Below are positions 6,740-56,029 of a stretch of 64,000 nucleotides of DNA, one piece after another. A program made the position numbers and the translations under genes. Origin of the DNA: Chloroflexota bacterium (lineage in GTDB: Bacteria; Chloroflexota; UBA6077; FW602-bin22; JBCLEL01); contig OZ253568.1 of NCBI GenBank assembly GCA_965262895.1, positions 3,547,317 to 3,611,316 on the forward strand, read 5' to 3'. The notes under the pieces are model-generated. The model did no database searches and was not told the origin of the DNA. It saw only the letters and a list, made by a program, of their open reading frames with translations. Numbering within the stretch: the first letter of the stretch is position 1; every line of letters starts with the position of its first letter.

Positions 6740-6774
6740 TCTTCCACAATTGAATAGCTAAAGACTGCGAACAG

Positions 6775-7041
6775 GATTATTAAGCTTCCCGACGGGGCTC
6801 AGAGAGCCGGGTAAGGTGCGAGCCGGTGCCAGTCAAGGAAGTCGAATGGACCTGGGAGTTGCTGCTTGAAAGCTGGAGCTAGTAGACGCAGCCGGATGTC
6901 TCGCCGTTAATTTGAGGCCGGGTATCGGATGGCTTTGTGTTGTCCCGTATCCCATTATGAGTGGGCTCGCCGCTGGTGAGCCAAGCGGGGTGGCACCGCG
7001 AGAGTTGACCTCACGTCCCCTAGAGGACGCGAGGTTTTTTT
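6775..7041 (+). promoter_or_regulatory. T-box leader (tRNA-Trp specific) with intrinsic terminator
   Basis: Stem I elements AGAGAG...GGUGCGAG (6800-6830). Specifier-loop context GAA-UGG-A (about 6844-6850). Conserved T-box sequence aagcgGGGUGGCACCGCGag (6983-7002). Terminator cctcacgtcc-cctaga-ggacgcgagg followed by T7 (7008-7041). Confidence 0.85.
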
Positions 7042-47234: not shown

Positions 47235-47575
47235 CACCATCCCCCGCTCTCGTCATTCCGTCCACGCGTCTCCTCATCACGCGAAGGCGGGAATCCACGA
47301 ACCGTGGCCGCGAGGAAAGACGACAGTCTAGAAACAACGGACTAGGTCCACCGAGAAAAACGTAGCGCTGGGGCTTGTCCCCAGTTCAGGGCACGGCGGG
47401 CAGCGCGCCCTGTTTGTACCGTCCGGCGTCCCACCATTTTCATCCCCTTACGCGGCCTCCGCAAGGCCATCGGCGATTCCGGCGAAAGCACGCCTCGTAC
47501 CCCGATACGGGGCCGGAATCCAGAGGAGAAGTGGACAGCACCAATCTTCATGCCCTGGCGTCCGGCCGGGTTCCG
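47235..47575 (+). repeat. Mosaic hairpin-repeat cluster 6
   Basis: Contains B with upstream half-site (47251-47298), C (47361-47384), D (47432-47480), B carrying a nested 22-23 nt hairpin insert (47473-47526) and an E-like tail. Confidence 0.8.
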
Positions 47576-47597: not shown

Positions 47598-48996
47598 TCA
47601 TTCTAGAGCAGTGCCGGCAAGAAGGTCAACGACAAACCGGACAGCAACAAGATCCCGCACACGTCGGTAAATGTCGTCAGTATTACTCCGGATGCGAGCG
47701 CCGGATCTATAACGAAGTGACTTCAATACTAGAGGAGTGAGCACGCCCGTAAGTGCCGCCACCAGCATGCTTCCGACGATCGCCGCGGCGACTACCAACG
47801 CCAGTACGGCGTCTCCTCGCCACACAAACGCTATCAAGCCGGTTATCGCGCCGATCGCTGCCCCATCTATCAATCCCATCGAAACTTCTTTGAACAGCGC
47901 TCGACCGGCCTCATTTGCCCTGATACCGCCCAACGCCAGCTCGCGTGTGATGATAGTTAGCGTCTGAACGCCGGTATTGCCACTTTGGCCGGCTATGATC
48001 GGCATAAACACGGCCAAGACCGCAACCTTGGCTACCACATCCTCGAACAAGCTGACGGTCAGACCGGCCAGAAAAACGGTGGCCAAGTTCACGAACAACC
48101 AGGGCAGCCTGCGCCGCACCGACTCGACTATGGGTGTGTTGATCCGTTCGTATTCGACCAGCCCGACCATCCTATTACATGTCTTCGGTATCTTCCTGTT
48201 GAATGATGTCGACCACGTCATCGACGGTTATCGTCCCAATCAGGCGCCGCTGAAGGTCAACTACAGGAAGCGCCAGCAGGTCGTAGGGTTGCAGTAAACG
48301 GGCGCACTCCTGTTGGTCTATACCGGCGCGCACCGAAATTACCTCTGGCGTCATTATGTCGCGGATCAATTCCCGTGGCGATGAGATGACGAGTTGGCGG
48401 AGGCTTACGATGCCGATCAGCCTACTCTGCCCGTCCACGACGTAAAGGTAGTGCGTGATATCGGCGCGTGGTTGAGTATTTCGCAGCCACGCGATGGCCC
48501 GCTCAACATTCACATCATCACGCAACGCAACCTAGTCCGGAACCATGATTCCGCCTGCGCTGTCTTCAGCGTACTGCATTAGGGATTCGACTTCGGAGGA
48601 CGCCTGCATGGCATCGAGGACCGCACCCGCTTGCTCGGGCCCCAACTGTCCCAAAACGTCAGCTGCGACGTCCGATTCCGTTAGGTCGAGAATCTGTGAG
48701 ATCTCCCCCGGATCCAGGTCCTCGACCACGTCCGCCGCGTCTTCGTCTTCCAGGTGCTCTAAGATGTCGGCCGACTCTTGAGGCGGAAGCCGTGTAATGA
48801 TCAGTTCTTGTTGATCGTGGCTCAGGCGCTCGACAATCCCGGCTTGGTCGGCCGGATGGAGCCGCTCGAGGAGCGCGATCCCCTGTTCAATCTCTCCAGA
48901 TCCAAAATGCTGAATGATCTTTTTCTTGATCGTGTCTTGATGTTGATCCAGCATACTTACCTTCCTTCGCGGTATTTGGAGCATCTCCGGCGACAC
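47598..48996 (-). pseudogene. mgtE: Magnesium transporter MgtE, disrupted by one nonsense codon and two frameshifts
   Basis: The three ORF-track pieces are the N-domain (48532..48996), CBS pair (48175..48525) and TM domain (47598..48221) of one MgtE. (i) In-frame TAG 48532-48534 in ...AGGIMVPD*VALRDDVNV, where MgtE has Tyr. (ii) Frameshift at ...QQEDTEDM** / NRMVGLVEYE (about 48175-48185). (iii) The +1 frame after ...VLKSLR reads IDPALASGVILTTFTDVCGILLLSGLSLTFLPALL*, the conserved MgtE C-terminus (shift near 47706-47716). Confidence 0.8.
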
Positions 48997-49130: not shown

Positions 49131-49981
49131 TTACGACTCAGGCGGCTCGCCTGCTTCAAGGCACTCAAGATATCTAGCAGCAACGTACCCAATATTACCG
49201 TCCGGGTCTCTTACGTGTTTCCATCTTAGGCCGTTACTCAGTACGTTCTTGCCGACAACCGCCATCTCGGTTTCTTCATCCCACAACTTGATCGGTTCTT
49301 CCGAACTGGGATTGCGGCGTATGAACACTCCCTCTCCGCCGGTATTCGCGACCACGCAGATTGGTACGTTGGGGTCCGGGTTAGGAGTAGGTGGCTGGAT
49401 TGGCTCTGCCGCGGTTTCATCGATCTCACCCTGTTCTATACCGCATTCAAGATATTCGGCGGCTACATAACCGGTGTTGCCATCGGGATCCCGGACGTTT
49501 TTCCAGCTCCGGCCACTTCGTCAGGGCCTGTCGCCACCATCTTCGATCCGTCCCACCACGCTTCGATCTTCTCCCCTGATTGAGGCGCAGAACGAATGAA
49601 CACGCCCTCTCCACCGGTGTTTCCAACCACGCAAGTGATGGTGCGCGTGTCTGGAGTCGATTCCAAGATGATCGTGGGGGTTATCGAACTATCCCCCGCG
49701 GGTTGACCAGATGAATCAACATTCGCAATAGCTTGCGCCGCGGTGGCAGTCAGGTCTGCGGAAGATATTATCTTTGTGCTGGTTGGGACAGTCGATAATG
49801 TCCTTGTAGGTATTTGCAACCGCCCCGGCGTCGCAGTCGCGTCCTCCAAGGAGGTCACCTCGCCCTCTGGCGGCGTCGGCTCAGCAGTTTCCTCGCCGCG
49901 TCCACAGCCGGCCGTTACCAACGCCAACAGACAAACAAGTACCAGCACTCGACGCGGAATGATAGGCAATGCGCGTCGCAC
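49131..49981 (-). pseudogene. Lipoprotein with two bacterial SH3 (SH3b) domains, split by a 1-nt frameshift
   Basis: Lipobox LVTAGC after a GTG start near 49981. The first SH3b repeat (…VVGNTGGEGVFIRSAPQSGEKIEAWWDGSKMVATGPDEV) changes frame near 49503-49516. The other frame continues RSWKNVRDPDGNTGYVAAEYLECG…VVANTGGEGVFIRRNPSSEEPIKLWDEETEMAVVGKNVLSNGLRWKHVRDPDGNIGYVAARYLEC, which is ORF 49131..49355. Confidence 0.65.
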
Positions 49982-50003
49982 TAAAATCTCTGCAGATGGG
50001 ATC

Positions 50004-50366
50004 TCATATTGGCGTGATCTGGGAAGCTTCGAGAACAAAGACCGCGCCGGCTCCAATCTTAACCCCGTCCTCCTCTCTCGGTTCCGAGAATTCACTCAGT
50101 GTCGGAACGATGGGCATTTGCAGTATGGGATCGGTATACGACGGAATGTAAGGAAGAGTCCTTACGAAGCAGGTGTGGCGGATGATGTCTTCAATGATAC
50201 ACTTCGTTGTGTCTTCACACCCTACAAGTACAATAGAATCGCCGGCGTCGAGAAACCTCGTGCCAAGGCGAATCGTGGTTGCCGTGAATCCCAGCCGTAC
50301 TAGCTGATCCACCGCCCTCTTTCCATCGTCCGCCCCTATGATCGCCACGACTAGACTATTGTGCAT
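50004..50366 (-). CDS. P-II-like cyclic-di-AMP receptor (DarA/PstA, YaaQ/DUF970 family)
   Basis: Start at ATG 50366. MHNSLVVAIIGADDGKRAVDQLVRLGFTATTIRLGTRFLDAGDSIVLVGCEDTT...VKIGAGAVFVLEASQ follows the B. subtilis YaaQ pattern (LIVA.VQD.D...L...L....F..T.L.TTGGFL..GN.T...GVED...VEVGGATVFVLPV). Confidence 0.7.
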   Translation of the reverse strand: MHNSLVVAIIGADDGKRAVDQLVRLGFTATTIRLGTRFLDAGDSIVLVGCEDTTKCIIEDIIRHTCFVRTLPYIPSYTDPILQMPIVPTLSEFSEPREEDGVKIGAGAVFVLEASQITPI

Positions 50367-50415
50367 CTTGCCTTGTTCCTCTCGTGCGCTCCTGTCCGGC
50401 CAACTGCCTCCACTC

Positions 50416-50443
50416 AAAAAAACCGAAGGCGTAGCCTTCGGTC
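50416..50443 (-). terminator. Intrinsic terminator (expression platform of the riboswitch)
   Basis: Minus-strand gaccgaaggc-tac-gccttcggt followed by T7, located between the aptamer and the darA-like start. Confidence 0.8.
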
Positions 50444-50454
50444 AGATCGCACTA

Positions 50455-50580
50455 CGTCTCTTCCATCCGCCTACGAGGTTAGCTGCCGGGCTCGGGCTGA
50501 AAGAGTTGCCCTATCTGGCACAAACCAGAACTCGCCCCATCGTTGGGTTCCCCGCTCTTCGCAAGAAGATTAGGCCATCT
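50455..50580 (-). promoter_or_regulatory. Cyclic-di-AMP riboswitch (ydaO-yuaA / kimA class)
   Basis: The minus-strand RNA is ccuaaucuucuugcgaAGAGCGGGGAACCCAacgaUGGGGCGAguucugguuugugccagaUAGGGCaacucuuucagCCCGAGCCCGGCAGCUAACCUCGUAGGCGgaugg. This matches the two pseudo-symmetric conserved halves of the ydaO motif (AGAGCGGGGGACCCA ... GGGGUGAAUC ... CCCGAACCCGUCAGCUAACCUCGUAAGCG in B. subtilis). Confidence 0.85.
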
Positions 50581-50750
50581 ATTCAGTTTTCGGCAGCTAT
50601 CTTATAACTAGCTGCTTTTAGAGTCAACAAGGAGAAAACGAGTTGCTCCATGGGATTTGGAATGCCATTCCTCGAGCGAATTCTCCGGACCCTGCTCGAA
50701 TCGACATGCGCTCGTAGGTGTCGGAGCGGGTACCGTTACTAACAAAGCGC

Positions 50751-51743
50751 CTAACGCACCGGAGCTCTGGTGACGCTCGACTGCTGCGATCGACTCTGTA
50801 TTTCCGCAACTAGCTCGACGGCCCGATCCAAGCTCGGATTCCCTTCCTCCATCATCCGAGTCCGGACTTCCTTGAGCACATCCTCTCCTGCCTTCGTCCG
50901 TATCCAATAGGCACGGCTCGACAGCGTAGCGTCAATACGTTGTCCCATTCGCCTTGTTTCTTTAGCCGTCGCCCGCGCCAACCAACTTACGTTCGCCCCC
51001 CTTCGCTGATATCGGCAATCGACCGAGAGCCGTATCCGATCCGAGTGGTTTGGCATGCCTCTATGAATTGTGCGGCAACTGAACATCACAACGTCTCCCG
51101 GTCGGAAATCCGCGGTCGCCCACGTGAGCTCCTCCGGCGTTATCACCGATGCCGCCCGACTCGCTTCTAATTTCTGAGTGCTAGGCACGATACCCGTGTG
51201 CTCGATTAGCCCAAAATGGTTGGAACCGGGTGCAACGGCTAGCCCGCCAATCGACTGGTCAATTTCCATGAGCGGATACCACGTCGTGAAAAAGTCGTCC
51301 GCACTATAGCCAAAGGATGGCGTTGCATCTTGGTGGGGTCCGGCTCCGCGTGCGACAGTGGCGTCAGGGTCGGGATAAACACAGCGAGTAATCTTCTGAT
51401 TCCATACACGAACCGGGCCATCCACTAGATGACGCATTATCCCCATAACCTCGGGTGAATTCGCCAGAACTTTTAACGATGGAAGCTCTACCAGTTTGCC
51501 ATAGACCGCCATCCACTCCTCTTCGGTGGGAAAAGGCCCTCCGCTCCACATTGGATCCGTCGATCCATCCTTTTCTATGAAATAGTAGGATCGTAACGTA
51601 GCCATCATGTCGCGCTTGAGTTGGAGCGCGACCTCCGGATCGATCAGCTCACGGATGAAAAGATAACCACGTTCCTCCATCGCCGAGCGAATCTGGTCAG
51701 GATCATTGAGAATTCCGTTATTCTCTTGCAGCGTCGCGAACAT
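50751..51743 (-). CDS. Phytanoyl-CoA dioxygenase (PhyH) family Fe(II)/2-oxoglutarate oxygenase
   Basis: 330-aa ORF. HQD (…GPHQDATP…) and distal His (…RTIHRGMPNHS…) as in the PhyH family. Confidence 0.7.
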   Translation of the reverse strand: MFATLQENNGILNDPDQIRSAMEERGYLFIRELIDPEVALQLKRDMMATLRSYYFIEKDGSTDPMWSGGPFPTEEEWMAVYGKLVELPSLKVLANSPEVMGIMRHLVDGPVRVWNQKITRCVYPDPDATVARGAGPHQDATPSFGYSADDFFTTWYPLMEIDQSIGGLAVAPGSNHFGLIEHTGIVPSTQKLEASRAASVITPEELTWATADFRPGDVVMFSCRTIHRGMPNHSDRIRLSVDCRYQRRGANVSWLARATAKETRRMGQRIDATLSSRAYWIRTKAGEDVLKEVRTRMMEEGNPSLDRAVELVAEIQSRSQQSSVTRAPVR

Positions 51744-51787
51744 CTGCGTGTGTCCCCCTTTTATACTCGAGAAGCATAGGTATCAAC

Positions 51788-52861
51788 TTACTCTTCCACC
51801 CACTCAAAAACCACTCCCAGTGAGTTCTCGTTATTCAGAATCATATCCCAAACCCGCTTGGCATCGCTTGGACGGACGAAATGAGTTAGCAACGGACCGA
51901 TTTTCCACCGACCGACTCTACGAAGTTTGATTACTTGCTGAACTTCGTCGTACGTATGATGCTCCGTCTGAACCATGCTGACCTCATAGAGATGGGCCAA
52001 GCTGAAGTCGTAGCTGACCTTCCAACGCCCACCGACCATCACAAACCGTCCGCCCCGCTTGATCAATCCGCGGGTCATCACCTCGTCGATAAGTTCGTTG
52101 TTGCCCGTGGTCTCGATTACTACGTCGAAAGGACCGAGGCCGGCCAAATCATCCCAATATGTCTCGCGACTGAAATCGAGGACCGATTCAAATCCAACTT
52201 CTATTGCCTTGTCAAGACGAAGAGGAATTCTGTCGACGCCAACGGAGGTGCCTCCCCTTACCACCGCGCCTTGCCCGGAAAACAAACCGAGTAACCCCAG
52301 TCCAAGCACTAGACACCGGCTGCCGACTCCAATCTGTCCTCTGCCGCTAGCATGTAGCCCGATGCTCGACAGAGATAGAAATGCGGCTTCCCCATCTGAT
52401 ATATCGTCCGGCAGGACGGTGACGTAGCGGTCCCGCCTGATCCTGCCGAACGAGTCGACCTGATCCACGTCCACCTGCTCGTCTGCTGGTCGCGTTCCTG
52501 GTAAAACGTCATCCGCCGGCCCTATCCGTGCAGCAGCGTGGGCGCCTGGGCGCGCGGTTTGTCCCACGAATGGGTGTCCCCAATCGTGCGCGTACACCCG
52601 CTGGCCAGTGATTGGCCCTAACACACCGTTCCCGACCCGGCCGACTAGTCCGACCTGCTGATAGCCGGATACCGACGGATATCCCACCGCCCAATTTCCG
52701 CCGAACAGCCGGTTTTTCTCAGTCCCCGGACTGACGCCGCTGGCCTTGGTAATTATCTCTATGTCGCCCGGCCCTAGCTCCGGCAGCTCGAGGTCGTCCC
52801 TTAGCTCCACAACTCCGGGAGCGGTAAAGACGATCCCCTCTATCCCCACGAGAATCCCCAA
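51788..52861 (-). CDS. Medium-chain dehydrogenase/reductase (zinc-type alcohol dehydrogenase-like)
   Basis: 357 aa. GroES-like N-domain plus Rossmann segment LVLGLGLLGL. Confidence 0.65.
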   Translation of the reverse strand: MGILVGIEGIVFTAPGVVELRDDLELPELGPGDIEIITKASGVSPGTEKNRLFGGNWAVGYPSVSGYQQVGLVGRVGNGVLGPITGQRVYAHDWGHPFVGQTARPGAHAAARIGPADDVLPGTRPADEQVDVDQVDSFGRIRRDRYVTVLPDDISDGEAAFLSLSSIGLHASGRGQIGVGSRCLVLGLGLLGLFSGQGAVVRGGTSVGVDRIPLRLDKAIEVGFESVLDFSRETYWDDLAGLGPFDVVIETTGNNELIDEVMTRGLIKRGGRFVMVGGRWKVSYDFSLAHLYEVSMVQTEHHTYDEVQQVIKLRRVGRWKIGPLLTHFVRPSDAKRVWDMILNNENSLGVVFEWVEE

Positions 52862-52940
52862 GATGCGCTGTCAAACCACCCTCGGTGGGACAGACAAACC
52901 CGATTCGCCAACCCGCCGTGACATCCGCCGACGCGGATAT

Positions 52941-53447
52941 TCATTCGAATTTTGGCGCCTCGTCTCCCAGGTTATCCAGCTTGCCGGCGAATACCGACGG
53001 GTAGTCCTTTAGCTCAATTAGCTCAAGCATGAATCCGTCCGGATCGTAGAAGAAGAGTGCCCGCCAACTACCGTCCGACGGCGGAAAAAGTACCGGAGGT
53101 GAAACGAACTTCACCCCCTTTGAGCTGAGGTCCTCGTACGCCGCATCGATGTCTTCGACCCCGAAGGCGACGTGGGCAGTGGCGGCATCGTTGATATCAC
53201 CGACGCTCTTTCCGCCTTTGGGCTCCACCCACTCGATCAAGTCGATTATTATGTTGCCGGTCTGAGGAGCTACCATTCGCGCCTCGCGCATCTTGGCGTT
53301 GGGCAAACCGACCATTGTCGATATCTCCGGACCGTCGTGGGTTACCCAAGTGATGACCTTTAGGCCAAGCATGTCGCGATAGAATTCTAGTGAACGGTCG
53401 AGGTCCTTGACCATTACCGTCACGTGATCGAGAGTCTTGAGGTGCAT
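52941..53447 (-). CDS. VOC-family (glyoxalase/bleomycin resistance/dioxygenase) protein
   Basis: 168 aa: LDHVTVMVKDLDRSLEFYRDMLGL...HVAFGVEDIDAAYEDL...DPDGFMLELIE. Confidence 0.75.
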   Translation of the reverse strand: MHLKTLDHVTVMVKDLDRSLEFYRDMLGLKVITWVTHDGPEISTMVGLPNAKMREARMVAPQTGNIIIDLIEWVEPKGGKSVGDINDAATAHVAFGVEDIDAAYEDLSSKGVKFVSPPVLFPPSDGSWRALFFYDPDGFMLELIELKDYPSVFAGKLDNLGDEAPKFE

Positions 53448-53532
53448 TTACTAACTCCTTTATCGCCAACTTAGACCGATTTACGCCGAAACGGCGTGCT
53501 ATAACCTACAAGAGCGAAGGTTTCTTGGGCTC

Positions 53533-54624
53533 TCAACTCAAGTCTTGGAGCTGAGGCATGACCTCTTCAGCCAACATCGTCATCGAGCGGTCCCAGATCT
53601 CCTTGGGACGCCATTCGTGGCCCATAGCCAACAAAACGCCGAATCCGCCGACGTCCTCGTGCAGCTTGCGAAGTTTGCGGGCACATTCATCCGGGTCTCC
53701 CACGATCCACGTATTGTCTAGCAGGTACTCCACGCCGACCTCTTCATCCGACATTGCTGGATCCTCTTTCAAAAGATCCATCCCTCGCACCATTCTCAGG
53801 AAGGGAAAGAAATAGTCGATCCACACCTCCGCGAAACAGCCTTCCAACACTTCTTTTCGGGCCTGTTCGGTCGTTTCGGCGACATGTACGTCACGCGCAA
53901 TTCGCCAAGTGGCTCTATCGGCCGGTCTATTGACTCGGTTTGCGCTGCTCTCCACGGTTTCGAAGTGAGTCTTGAGGATCCTGATCGGCAAGACGTTGAC
54001 GCTCATCGGCATCCAGCCTCGTTCGCCAGCCATCACCAATGTTTCAGAGTTCGGTGACAGGCCGGCTACGCCGATCGGCGGATGGGGTTGCTGGAAAGGC
54101 TTCATGTGATAGTACAGATCTACCTCGTAGTTCGGTTCCGGAACTCGGAAGCGCCAACGCTTTCCATTCTGCTGCTCATAAAGACCAGGCTTCGGATCCG
54201 CCCACAGTTGAAGGATGGTATCGATAGCCTCGTTGGTGATGGCCCGCTGTTCCCCACCCTTGTAATCAACGTCAAATAGTTCAAGATCGCTCGTGAGACC
54301 GCCGGAACCGATACCCCAATAAAGGCGACCTTTGGCCATATGGTCGAGTTGGGCAATCCTGTTAGCCAGCACGACCGGGTTGTGATTTGGCATACAGGAG
54401 ACGCCAGTCCCGAGTTTCATATGCTTAGTCACGGGCAGGGCCTGGGCGATCAACAAATCAGGAGAAGGTATGTTTTCCCAAACACTTGTAAAATGCTCTC
54501 CAACCCACGCTTCGTCGTATTTCAACTCATCGAGCCGGATCAGCTGTTCGAGGTCTTCCTCAAGCGTTTCGGTTTGATTGCTTCCAGGCGGATGCAGTGG
54601 CATGGTGAAGTAGCCTAGCTTCAT
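53533..54624 (-). CDS. LLM-class flavin-dependent oxidoreductase (luciferase-like monooxygenase)
   Basis: 363 aa: MKLGYFTMPLHPPG...AWVGEHF...LGTGVS... Confidence 0.8.
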   Translation of the reverse strand: MKLGYFTMPLHPPGSNQTETLEEDLEQLIRLDELKYDEAWVGEHFTSVWENIPSPDLLIAQALPVTKHMKLGTGVSCMPNHNPVVLANRIAQLDHMAKGRLYWGIGSGGLTSDLELFDVDYKGGEQRAITNEAIDTILQLWADPKPGLYEQQNGKRWRFRVPEPNYEVDLYYHMKPFQQPHPPIGVAGLSPNSETLVMAGERGWMPMSVNVLPIRILKTHFETVESSANRVNRPADRATWRIARDVHVAETTEQARKEVLEGCFAEVWIDYFFPFLRMVRGMDLLKEDPAMSDEEVGVEYLLDNTWIVGDPDECARKLRKLHEDVGGFGVLLAMGHEWRPKEIWDRSMTMLAEEVMPQLQDLS

Positions 54625-54761
54625 GTTGGCAGCCTCCTAAGTTCCTGTCGGGCGTTGCAAGCTGGTGCACCCAATCTGACGTACCAGAACCTCGCCGAAA
54701 TTCTCCGGCAGTGCGCGAGATTCGTCAATCACTCAATATTATTCGGCGAACGTGCCTCCGT

Positions 54762-55088
54762 CTATCCGCCCTTCCACTTGGAGTCATCCGGGAAGATTGT
54801 TGATCCCCGGTAGATTACCCTCGCTTCGATCACGTCCTGCGAAGCCTCCCGCCACTTAGCCAAATGAGGCGTACGCGTGTGTGCCTCAAAGGCATCCTCG
54901 TCAGCGTATATTTCGTAGGCGTAGATCGTGTTAGGATCACTCTCGTCCTGGCTAACGTCGAACTGGTAGCAACCTGGTTCCACACTCACCGAGCTGCCGG
55001 CGTCTTCGACTAGCGCCGCGACAACGGCATCGCAGTGTCCTTCTTGGATCTTGAACTGTGCTATCAAAACGAACATCTTTCTTACCAT
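54762..55088 (-). CDS. Antibiotic-biosynthesis-monooxygenase (ABM) domain protein
   Basis: 108 aa: ferredoxin-like dimeric alpha+beta barrel pattern (…EPGCYQFDVSQD…IYAYEIYADEDAFEAHTRTPH…). Confidence 0.7.
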   Translation of the reverse strand: MVRKMFVLIAQFKIQEGHCDAVVAALVEDAGSSVSVEPGCYQFDVSQDESDPNTIYAYEIYADEDAFEAHTRTPHLAKWREASQDVIEARVIYRGSTIFPDDSKWKGG

Positions 55089-55094
55089 GACCTC

Positions 55095-55868
55095 CTATTC
55101 TGTGGCTTTCAAAAACTCTTCGGTGGCCGGACCCAGAACTTGATACACGCTTACTACGGTAAAGTTAACCCCGCGCCCGCGTTGAATCTGGGCCCACTCA
55201 TCCGCTTTGTCCAGGTCCATAGTCGGAATGCATATGTGGCGGCCCGCCGATCGCACCTGTCCTACTACCTCCGCTACCACCTTCTGAACCTCGGGGTGCT
55301 CCCAATGACCAGCTACGCCCAACGACTCCGCCATATCCATTAGTCCGAGCATGAAAATGTCGATTCCTGGGACTTTGAGAATCTCCGGCAAGTTATCGAC
55401 GGCTTGCTTTTCCTCGATCATGCCTATGACGATCGATTCCTCGTTGACCCGGTCTTGGTACTCCCTGACGGACGATACGAAGCCGTACCGAGCGGCGCGT
55501 GCCGCTGCATTGCTGCCACGACGACCAACCGGGCGGAAACGAGTCTGTTCGACAATCGCCTCGGCCTGCTCCCGCGTATTCATATGTGGCACCAACACGC
55601 CACCCGCGCCCATGTCCATATAGAGACTTATCATGGCCGGGTCGTTTCGATAAAGTCTGACTATAGGGACCATCCCAGAGTTTTGAGCCGCTCGAACCAT
55701 GCTCTCGCAGGTTTCTGCGTCTATGGTGGCCTGATGAACGTCGATGAAGGTCCATTCGAAGCCGGCGTAGCCGCCAAACTCCACTAGGGCAGGCGATGCG
55801 ACCGCTACCGCCCATCCCCTCAAGTACTCGCCGGCATCAGCCCTCGCAATCAGTGATCTGGCACTCAA
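55095..55868 (-). CDS. HpcH/HpaI-family aldolase
   Basis: 257 aa: ...FIDVHQATID...VRLYRNDP...GAGGVLVPHMNTREQAE...IEEKQAVDNLPEI... are typical class II pyruvate-aldolase motifs. Confidence 0.75.
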   Translation of the reverse strand: MSARSLIARADAGEYLRGWAVAVASPALVEFGGYAGFEWTFIDVHQATIDAETCESMVRAAQNSGMVPIVRLYRNDPAMISLYMDMGAGGVLVPHMNTREQAEAIVEQTRFRPVGRRGSNAAARAARYGFVSSVREYQDRVNEESIVIGMIEEKQAVDNLPEILKVPGIDIFMLGLMDMAESLGVAGHWEHPEVQKVVAEVVGQVRSAGRHICIPTMDLDKADEWAQIQRGRGVNFTVVSVYQVLGPATEEFLKATE

Positions 55869-56029
55869 TTCAAGCTCCTCGGGTAGAATCGTGCGATGAT
55901 GAGGGCACCTACGTTGTGTCAGACGTCCGCTGGTGAGCCAACGTCGGGATCGGCGCCATCATCCGTTGCACCCTCAAAGGATAATTATTCGGGCCACAGC
56001 CGCGCCAGTCAAGCGCCGCAGCCCAACGT

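Follow-up and report, generated by a model that had tools for sequence, protein, structure and literature searches.

The c-di-AMP (cyclic di-AMP) riboswitch class acts as an OFF switch in Bacillus subtilis, where the ligand controls KimA and KtrA both at the riboswitch and at the protein (PMC10636490), and the usual cargo of ydaO-class riboswitches consists of cell-wall and ion-transport genes (PMC7266159). The receptor proteins DarA and DarB seem to be active when free of ligand, and the target and cellular role of DarA are open (PMC10636490). Here we analyse a locus in which such a riboswitch precedes an open reading frame (ORF) of 120 amino acids (aa) related to DarA of B. subtilis and PstA of Staphylococcus aureus and Listeria monocytogenes. 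The locus lies in a 64,000-nt stretch (the window) of a Chloroflexota genome, and its features are on the minus strand unless stated otherwise. An initial annotation had read it as a feedback circuit in which c-di-AMP shuts off synthesis of its own receptor. Our results make it probable that a c-di-AMP OFF riboswitch with the appearance of a functional element leads an operon with a DarA/PstA-like gene pair that is conserved in one Chloroflexota order, and that this module is decaying in the genome studied here. A literature search that did not cover the original gene-association lists yielded no account of darA or pstA being preceded by a c-di-AMP riboswitch, and a prior description is possible; the DarA-like family is apparently an unreported member of the regulon, conserved in one Chloroflexota order.

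The riboswitch and its expression platform

The covariance model of the ydaO/yuaA class (Rfam RF00379) matches positions 50453-50586 over its full length (model positions 1-134 of 134) with 89.8 bits against a gathering score of 38 (E = 1e-19), and a search of the whole genome gave the same result for this riboswitch. The check proposed in the initial annotation thus confirms the ydaO-class aptamer that it had placed at 50455-50580. A consensus scan identified a putative sigma-70-like promoter (TTGACT, a 17-nt spacer and TAAGAT, with 9 of 12 matches) at 50627-50599, which is the sole minus-strand promoter-like site upstream of the 120-aa ORF; the transcript would start a few nucleotides upstream of the aptamer. 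The same scan detected no promoter-like site in the segment from the terminator to the ATG at 50366.

Across the ~340 nt that comprise promoter, aptamer and terminator, at most three substitutions separate the window from the related contigs L106, L001, L003 and L006, and all three are in L003. The 134-nt aptamer differs from that of L003 at two positions and from those of L106, L001 and L006 at none, and aptamer and terminator together are free of substitutions relative to the latter three contigs. In contrast to this conserved leader, the adjacent PhyH gene shares just 94.5% identity with its counterparts in L001, L003 and L006. The riboswitch is real and ordinary in kind, with a response to the ligand that is predicted from its sequence.

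Nine nucleotides past the aptamer begins an intrinsic terminator (50416-50443), composed of GACCGAAGGC, the loop UAC, GCCUUCGGUU and a U7 tract. Its stem (50443-50421) has 10 pairs, 6 of them G-C, and closes a 3-nt loop, with a hairpin energy of about -17.7 kcal/mol; the U7 run (50422-50416) overlaps the last two stem bases. The strong terminator described at this position in the initial annotation is therefore present. Six of nine leaders (the window, L016, L018, L019, L022 and L023) have an intrinsic terminator behind the aptamer, and the orthologous terminators in the latter five show compensating changes in the stem.

Constrained folding and comparison of the six leaders point to two competing roles for the 3' tail of the aptamer, GGAAGAGACGUAG (50452-50464). 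The segment GGAAGAG (50464-50458) is the 3' strand of a predicted pseudoknot, the 5' strand of which is the hairpin loop CUCUUUC (50499-50505), whereas GAGACGUAG (50460-50452) is the 5' strand of a predicted antiterminator that would pair with CUACGCCUUC (50434-50425), comprising the terminator loop and 3' arm. The two tail strands overlap by 3 nt, and the pseudoknot and the antiterminator are mutually exclusive because these 3 nt are common to both. Tail-to-loop duplexes computed in five leaders range from -9.7 kcal/mol, the value for the window pair CUCUUUC:GGAAGAG, to -13.2 kcal/mol; the L016 duplex (GAAAGAG:CUCUUUC) was paired by hand. The equivalents of the pseudoknot duplex in five orthologous leaders carry compensating changes. 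Sequence-by-sequence comparison of the six leaders shows that the antiterminator pairs covary between families: CGUAG:CUACG in the window, GAGGC-GUAGC with GCUAC-U-GCCUC in L016, GACAUAGC:GCUAUGUC in L023 (core CAUAGC:GCUAUG), AUCGC:GCGAU plus GGC:GCC in L019 and L022, and GAGGCA:UGCCUC in L018. We give these covarying pairs leader by leader because the terminator loops, 3-6 nt in length, shift the 3' arms out of register.

From these features we infer that pseudoknot and antiterminator compete and that the switch is of the OFF type. Transcription would start at the promoter near 50600. When c-di-AMP is bound, GGAAGAG in the tail would be held in the pseudoknot with the loop CUCUUUC, the terminator hairpin (50443-50421) would form, and transcription would stop; when the ligand is absent, GAGACGUAG would pair with CUACGCCUUC to form the antiterminator, and the genes would be transcribed. 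A ligand-stabilised pseudoknot would free the terminator because pseudoknot and antiterminator share bases. The PII-like proteins encoded downstream would then be made only at low c-di-AMP, when DarA-type receptors are ligand-free, apparently their active state in Firmicutes, and c-di-AMP would lower both their amount and their activity, as it does with KimA and KtrA. Such an arrangement would constitute two-level repression by one ligand. Nothing suggests that the receptor alters c-di-AMP levels, and the circuit is not the feedback proposed in the initial annotation; nor is the idea that a ligand represses its own binder new in principle, given that kimA and ktrAB are already controlled in this manner in B. 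subtilis (PMC10636490).

Family, fold and conservation of the DarA-like genes

The 120-aa ORF (50004-50366) starts at the ATG at 50366, 9 nt behind a Shine-Dalgarno-like GAGAGGAA (50376-50383, read from the sequence). It had been assigned to the YaaQ/DarA family, and this assignment holds at the level of the family and the fold: the Pfam profile PF06153 (CdAMP_rec) matches with 33.0 bits against a cut-off of 27, although the aligned part is limited to residues 5-71, and a comparison with the PstA structure 4d3g in PDB gives E = 1.8e-5. The ORF is no ordinary DarA, however, and reaches 36.8 bits against a cut-off of 140 for the NCBIfam DarA equivalog (NF058593). An AlphaFold2 model built with 41 sequences (mean predicted local distance difference test score, pLDDT, 79.9) has the order beta-alpha-beta-beta-alpha-loop-beta, with strands at residues 3-11, 29-34, 43-51 and 107-114, helices at 12-24 and 52-65, and a low-confidence loop at 66-101. 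The predicted structure is of the PII-like ferredoxin type, in which the T-loop is short and the B-loop long. The best Foldseek matches (4d3h, 4rww, 3m05 and 4rle; E ~1e-7, target-normalised TM-scores 0.66-0.82) are PstA, the Pediococcus homologue 3m05 and DarA.

To place the locus in a wider context, we surveyed 27 species-level genomes of the Chloroflexota order, representing 11 families, plus 14 other genomes of the class. Each of the 27 genomes from the order carries RF00379, for a total of 73 matches that reach the gathering score. In nine of them (G000, which is the genome of the window, G004, G007, G012, G013, G015, G017, G019 and G023), belonging to 6 of the 11 families, a riboswitch is followed on its own strand, after 70-393 nt, by a CdAMP_rec gene. 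The survey of genes downstream of riboswitches for DarA homologues, as suggested in the initial annotation, is thus positive in a third of these 27 genomes. Rough arithmetic with 73 riboswitches in 27 genomes gives a chance expectation of ~0.01 such cases vs. the nine observed, and conservation in 9 of the 27 genomes argues that the link between riboswitch and DarA-like genes is no chance juxtaposition. The riboswitch is followed by a long and then a short CdAMP_rec gene in G007, G012, G017 and G019, by a short and then a long one in G015 and G023, by a long and then a short one fused to a single ORF in the assembly studied here (G000), by one long form in G004, and by a 78-aa ORF and then a form of canonical length in G013. 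The 78-aa ORF in G013 (C72; L018 1792-2028) has no Pfam match, and its order of strands and helices would fit a further degenerate half of a PII-like protein.

Outside the order the pairing was not observed: it is absent from the 14 genomes surveyed in the rest of the class, and among 40 short-type CdAMP_rec loci scanned across Chloroflexota, which were found with six short-type query sequences (the scan left out L065-L104), a riboswitch is present at four, all in the order, and at 0 of the 36 outside it. Within the order, one long and short pair (G021:C134) has no riboswitch even at E <= 1, showing that the pair can exist without it.

The genes behind the pair differ by family and include a TPR protein with a DtxR-like repressor, an NHL protein, an SBP_bac_5 ABC (ATP-binding cassette) transporter, or SH3b and MgtE. 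Because they differ in every family, we regard the DarA-like genes as the conserved cargo. These data also bear on the alternative that the riboswitch serves the SH3b lipoprotein and MgtE, as in classical ydaO regulons, with the DarA-like ORF as a passenger. Both genes lie downstream on the same strand in the window, cell-wall and ion-transport genes are the usual cargo of the class (PMC7266159), and MgtE binds c-di-AMP in B. subtilis (PMC10636490). Across the paired loci of the order, however, CdAMP_rec genes alone always come after the riboswitch while the genes further downstream vary by family, an intact SH3b gene occurs without a riboswitch in G002, and a gap of 162 nt separates SH3b from mgtE in the window; we therefore consider the passenger explanation very unlikely. 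The SH3b gene, which the initial annotation had found to fit the regulon, is not a conserved member of it, given the variation between families and the intact copy without a riboswitch in G002.

Elsewhere in the genome of the window we identified a diadenylate cyclase and a canonical DarA (G000:963033-963356, 130.9 bits). Together with two short CdAMP_rec paralogues and a second riboswitch, they indicate that c-di-AMP signalling is in place. The second c-di-AMP riboswitch (G000:C1:2020025-2020161, minus strand, 83.1 bits) is conserved in G001 and G002 and precedes a 128-aa ORF without a Pfam match. The two short paralogues (G000:C1:782914-783123 and 1245579-1245767, both on the minus strand) have no riboswitch. 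Short CdAMP_rec forms of this type (~80-96 aa; also L025-L104) lack the long B-loop, keep the motif RxTR...GGFL...N, and are widespread in Chloroflexota, with 140 confirmed stretches.

The deletion hybrid and the state of the operon

In a homology search, two homologues of the 120-aa ORF proved to come from one 3.6-Mb contig: P0002 covers the N-terminal part of the ORF at 97% identity, and P0004 is identical to it over the last 31 residues. Eight contigs that are ~96% identical to the window carry, in this order, PhyH, the leader, CdAMP_rec gene 1, CdAMP_rec gene 2, an intact SH3b gene, mgtE and an MFS gene; gene 2 encodes 91 aa and overlaps gene 1 by ATGA. DNA alignment shows that the window is without 290 nt that in these relatives are flanked by 8-nt direct repeats TCGTTCAG, with one repeat per gene, and the deletion junction reads TCGTTCCG (50103-50110). 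The deletion fuses the two genes in frame, such that residues 1 to ~85 derive from the N-terminal two thirds of a degenerate paralogue 1, and the remainder, with the last strand, from paralogue 2. The hybrid fold is topologically complete because the junction falls in the B-loop. The same deletion is found in L106 and L107, each from another sample, and thus represents a real haplotype.

The contacts of L. monocytogenes PstA with c-di-AMP are Thr28, 34-GGFL-37, Asn41, Gly47, Thr97 and Phe99, and the N41A substitution weakens the dissociation constant (Kd) to ~140 uM (Choi et al. 2015, PMC4475381). The 120-aa ORF retains the equivalents of Thr28, Phe36, Leu37, Gly47 and Phe99 (Thr30, Phe38, Leu39, Gly49 and the beta-4 Phe), whereas Gly34-Gly35 are replaced by Thr36-Arg37, Asn41 by Asp43, and Thr97 by Ala, so that the set of conserved contacts is incomplete. 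In an alignment of 21 sequences, these altered residues occur in the window ORF and its parent gene 1 only; the other 19, which comprise riboswitch-linked long and short forms of other families, the three other paralogues of the genome and S. aureus PstA, keep the second Gly and the Asn. The S. aureus sequence served for that alignment alone. Gene 2 (P0004) has a good motif (RATR...GGYL...NAT), and it is exactly this part that the 290-nt deletion removed. The hybrid has probably lost ligand binding, as far as its residues allow us to judge, and the copy in the window is a degenerate remnant that is not to be annotated as a working receptor.

The opposite possibility, that the 120-aa protein is a working c-di-AMP receptor and that this organism has an active circuit through which c-di-AMP turns off synthesis of the protein that binds it, draws on the open frame, the complete predicted PII-like fold and the five retained contacts. 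It is also compatible with the occurrence of the hybrid in three independent assemblies, in one of which (L106) an intact SH3b gene comes next, and with the conservation of promoter, aptamer and terminator, in which the only aptamer substitutions noted are the two relative to L003. We nevertheless consider it unlikely, because an Arg in place of the second Gly of GGFL and an Asp in place of Asn41 are otherwise confined to the parent gene 1, the N41A change weakens binding by L. monocytogenes PstA (PMC4475381), and the score against the DarA equivalog falls far below the cut-off. In addition, the same paralogue is frameshifted in the other haplotype, and the module is deleted in sister species.

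That other haplotype (L001-L008) keeps two CdAMP_rec genes, but in 6 of 6 aligned contigs, which come from three samples, gene 1 has an extra T that shifts its first strand out of frame. In the sister species G001 and G002, PhyH abuts SH3b, with complete loss of the riboswitch and the DarA-like genes and loss of most of mgtE; SH3b has retained an intact frame in G002, whereas in G001 its frame is split.

Downstream of the hybrid, a lipoprotein gene (49131-49981) encodes two SH3b-like repeats, as the initial annotation had described; the identity between the two repeats is 56%. Pfam detects the second repeat (SH3_4, 31.6 bits vs. 24.1; SH3_3, 30.0 vs. 27), and the N-terminus, read from the sequence, has a signal with the lipobox-like LVTAGC; profile match and lipobox signal together identify an SH3b-domain lipoprotein, the frame of which is broken in this genome. 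The frameshift, also noted previously, is due to the loss of one copy of a 7-nt tandem repeat (GGCCGGR GGCCGGA) at ~49515, with the remaining GGCCGGA at 49508-49514, whereas the gene is intact (285-310 aa) in eight relatives (L001-L006, L009 and L106). Programmed frameshifting was considered and rejected, as a single 7-nt unit has simply been lost at this site and the relatives are in frame.

Further downstream, an mgtE pseudogene (47598-48996) has its MgtE_N, CBS and MgtE domains on three separate ORFs according to Pfam, with a TAC to TAG change at 48532-48534 and an insertion of one nucleotide at ~48176 that is shared with L106. Related contigs carry different mgtE lesions: the gene is split in the L001-L008 haplotype as well, and an intact 451-aa MgtE is found only in L107. 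mgtE may belong to the same transcription unit as the riboswitch operon. The ratio of nonsynonymous to synonymous substitution rates (dN/dS) is 0.28-0.65 for the operon genes vs. 0.05-0.21 for the upstream neighbours, based on small counts, and the flanking PhyH, ADH and MFS genes are intact. With SH3b frameshifted, mgtE a pseudogene and the receptor ORF a deletion hybrid, the earlier suspicion of a partly defunct operon was well founded, and the module, as read from its sequence, is decaying in this genome. Within one genus it has been dismantled in several ways, by deletion fusion, by frameshift and by complete deletion, and it is dispensable there because it was lost or broken in different ways.

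An assembly artefact would offer an alternative account, in which the lesions were introduced into a long-read metagenome-assembled genome and the real operon is intact, with two DarA-like genes, SH3b and mgtE. The related contigs do resemble long-read metagenome assemblies, L107 (2.6x coverage) has many private single-base indels, and the 7-nt deletion and the mgtE TAG occur in this assembly only, among the assemblies checked. Conversely, the 290-nt deletion is common to three assemblies from different samples and the extra T in gene 1 to six aligned contigs from three samples, long homopolymers contain none of the lesions, the 7-nt loss corresponds to clean slippage by one repeat unit, and the neighbouring genes of the window have intact frames. 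We consider an artefactual origin of the lesions highly improbable.

Several observations weigh against the reading of the locus as a decaying operon under an OFF riboswitch. Plain minimum-free-energy folding of the whole leader gives no convincing antiterminator, which was seen only when the 5' arm of the terminator was blocked in folding and from the comparison of leaders. No U-tract is present in the three leaders of family f10, which may operate by a different mechanism. Asp in place of Asn and Thr-Arg in place of Gly-Gly are no proof of lost binding; with a complete predicted fold, an open frame in two of three assemblies and a perfectly conserved leader, the hybrid may still be functional. 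The 7-nt loss in the SH3b gene is seen in this assembly alone, and dN/dS of the operon is weakly above that of its neighbours, with 0.43 for the MFS gene on the other side, such that this comparison is not decisive.

Other features of the window include a repeat of ~100-200 nt between the MFS gene and mgtE (~47333-47538), which has dozens of matches in G001 and G002 at 74-91% identity and looks like a family of the repetitive extragenic palindromic (REP) or miniature inverted-repeat transposable element (MITE) type. At 50751-55900, the synonymous divergence (dS) from L001 varies ~40-fold between adjacent genes, from 0.02 for HpcH to 0.9 for a glyoxalase-family gene, which suggests mosaic recombination in the population. 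A T-box leader is located at 6758-7023 on the plus strand (99.8 bits vs. a gathering score of 93).

Comparison with known c-di-AMP systems

If the riboswitch restricts synthesis of DarA-like proteins to low c-di-AMP, it would provide independent, cross-phylum support for an active ligand-free form, and the long and short pair would be a compact two-gene module for testing the activity of that form. A more speculative idea, which we hold to be quite unlikely, is that the long and short paralogues are co-transcribed and translationally coupled (ATGA) and form mixed trimers made only at low c-di-AMP, acting as ligand-free regulators or as a c-di-AMP sink of high affinity through which the switch would become sharper or acquire memory. 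Were it true, the repeated independent breakage of one paralogue or the other in this genus would be a natural experiment showing which subunit can be spared.

Among the closest known systems are the riboswitch-controlled long and short pairs of the same order (for example, G007:C13, G015:C117 and G023:C10). The leader is orthologous to theirs and has the same terminator architecture, and paralogues 1 and 2 of the window correspond to the long and short forms. Those loci keep two genes with an intact RxTR...GGFL...N motif, whereas in the window the genes are fused and the N-terminal part is degenerate.

Compared to DarA of B. subtilis and PstA of S. aureus and L. monocytogenes, the 120-aa ORF is alike in its PF06153 match above the cut-off, in a fold closest to 4d3h, 4rww and 4rle, and in the retained equivalents of Thr28, Phe36, Leu37, Gly47 and Phe99. 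It differs in its low score on the DarA equivalog (36.8 vs. 140 bits), in the changes of GG to TR, Asn41 to Asp and Thr97 to Ala, and in its origin as a hybrid from two paralogues, with a B-loop that is longer and predicted with low confidence; moreover, a separate canonical DarA is encoded in the same genome.

With the B. subtilis riboswitches of kimA (ydaO) and ktrAB (yuaA), the locus shares the RF00379 aptamer family, matched here over the full model, a predicted OFF mode by transcription termination, and a ligand that would act on both the RNA and the protein product, as described for those genes (PMC10636490). Unlike them, the riboswitch of the window has as its cargo a PII-like signal-transduction protein, or pair of proteins, rather than a K+ transporter, its host belongs to the Chloroflexota and not to the Firmicutes, and the copy analysed here heads a decaying operon.

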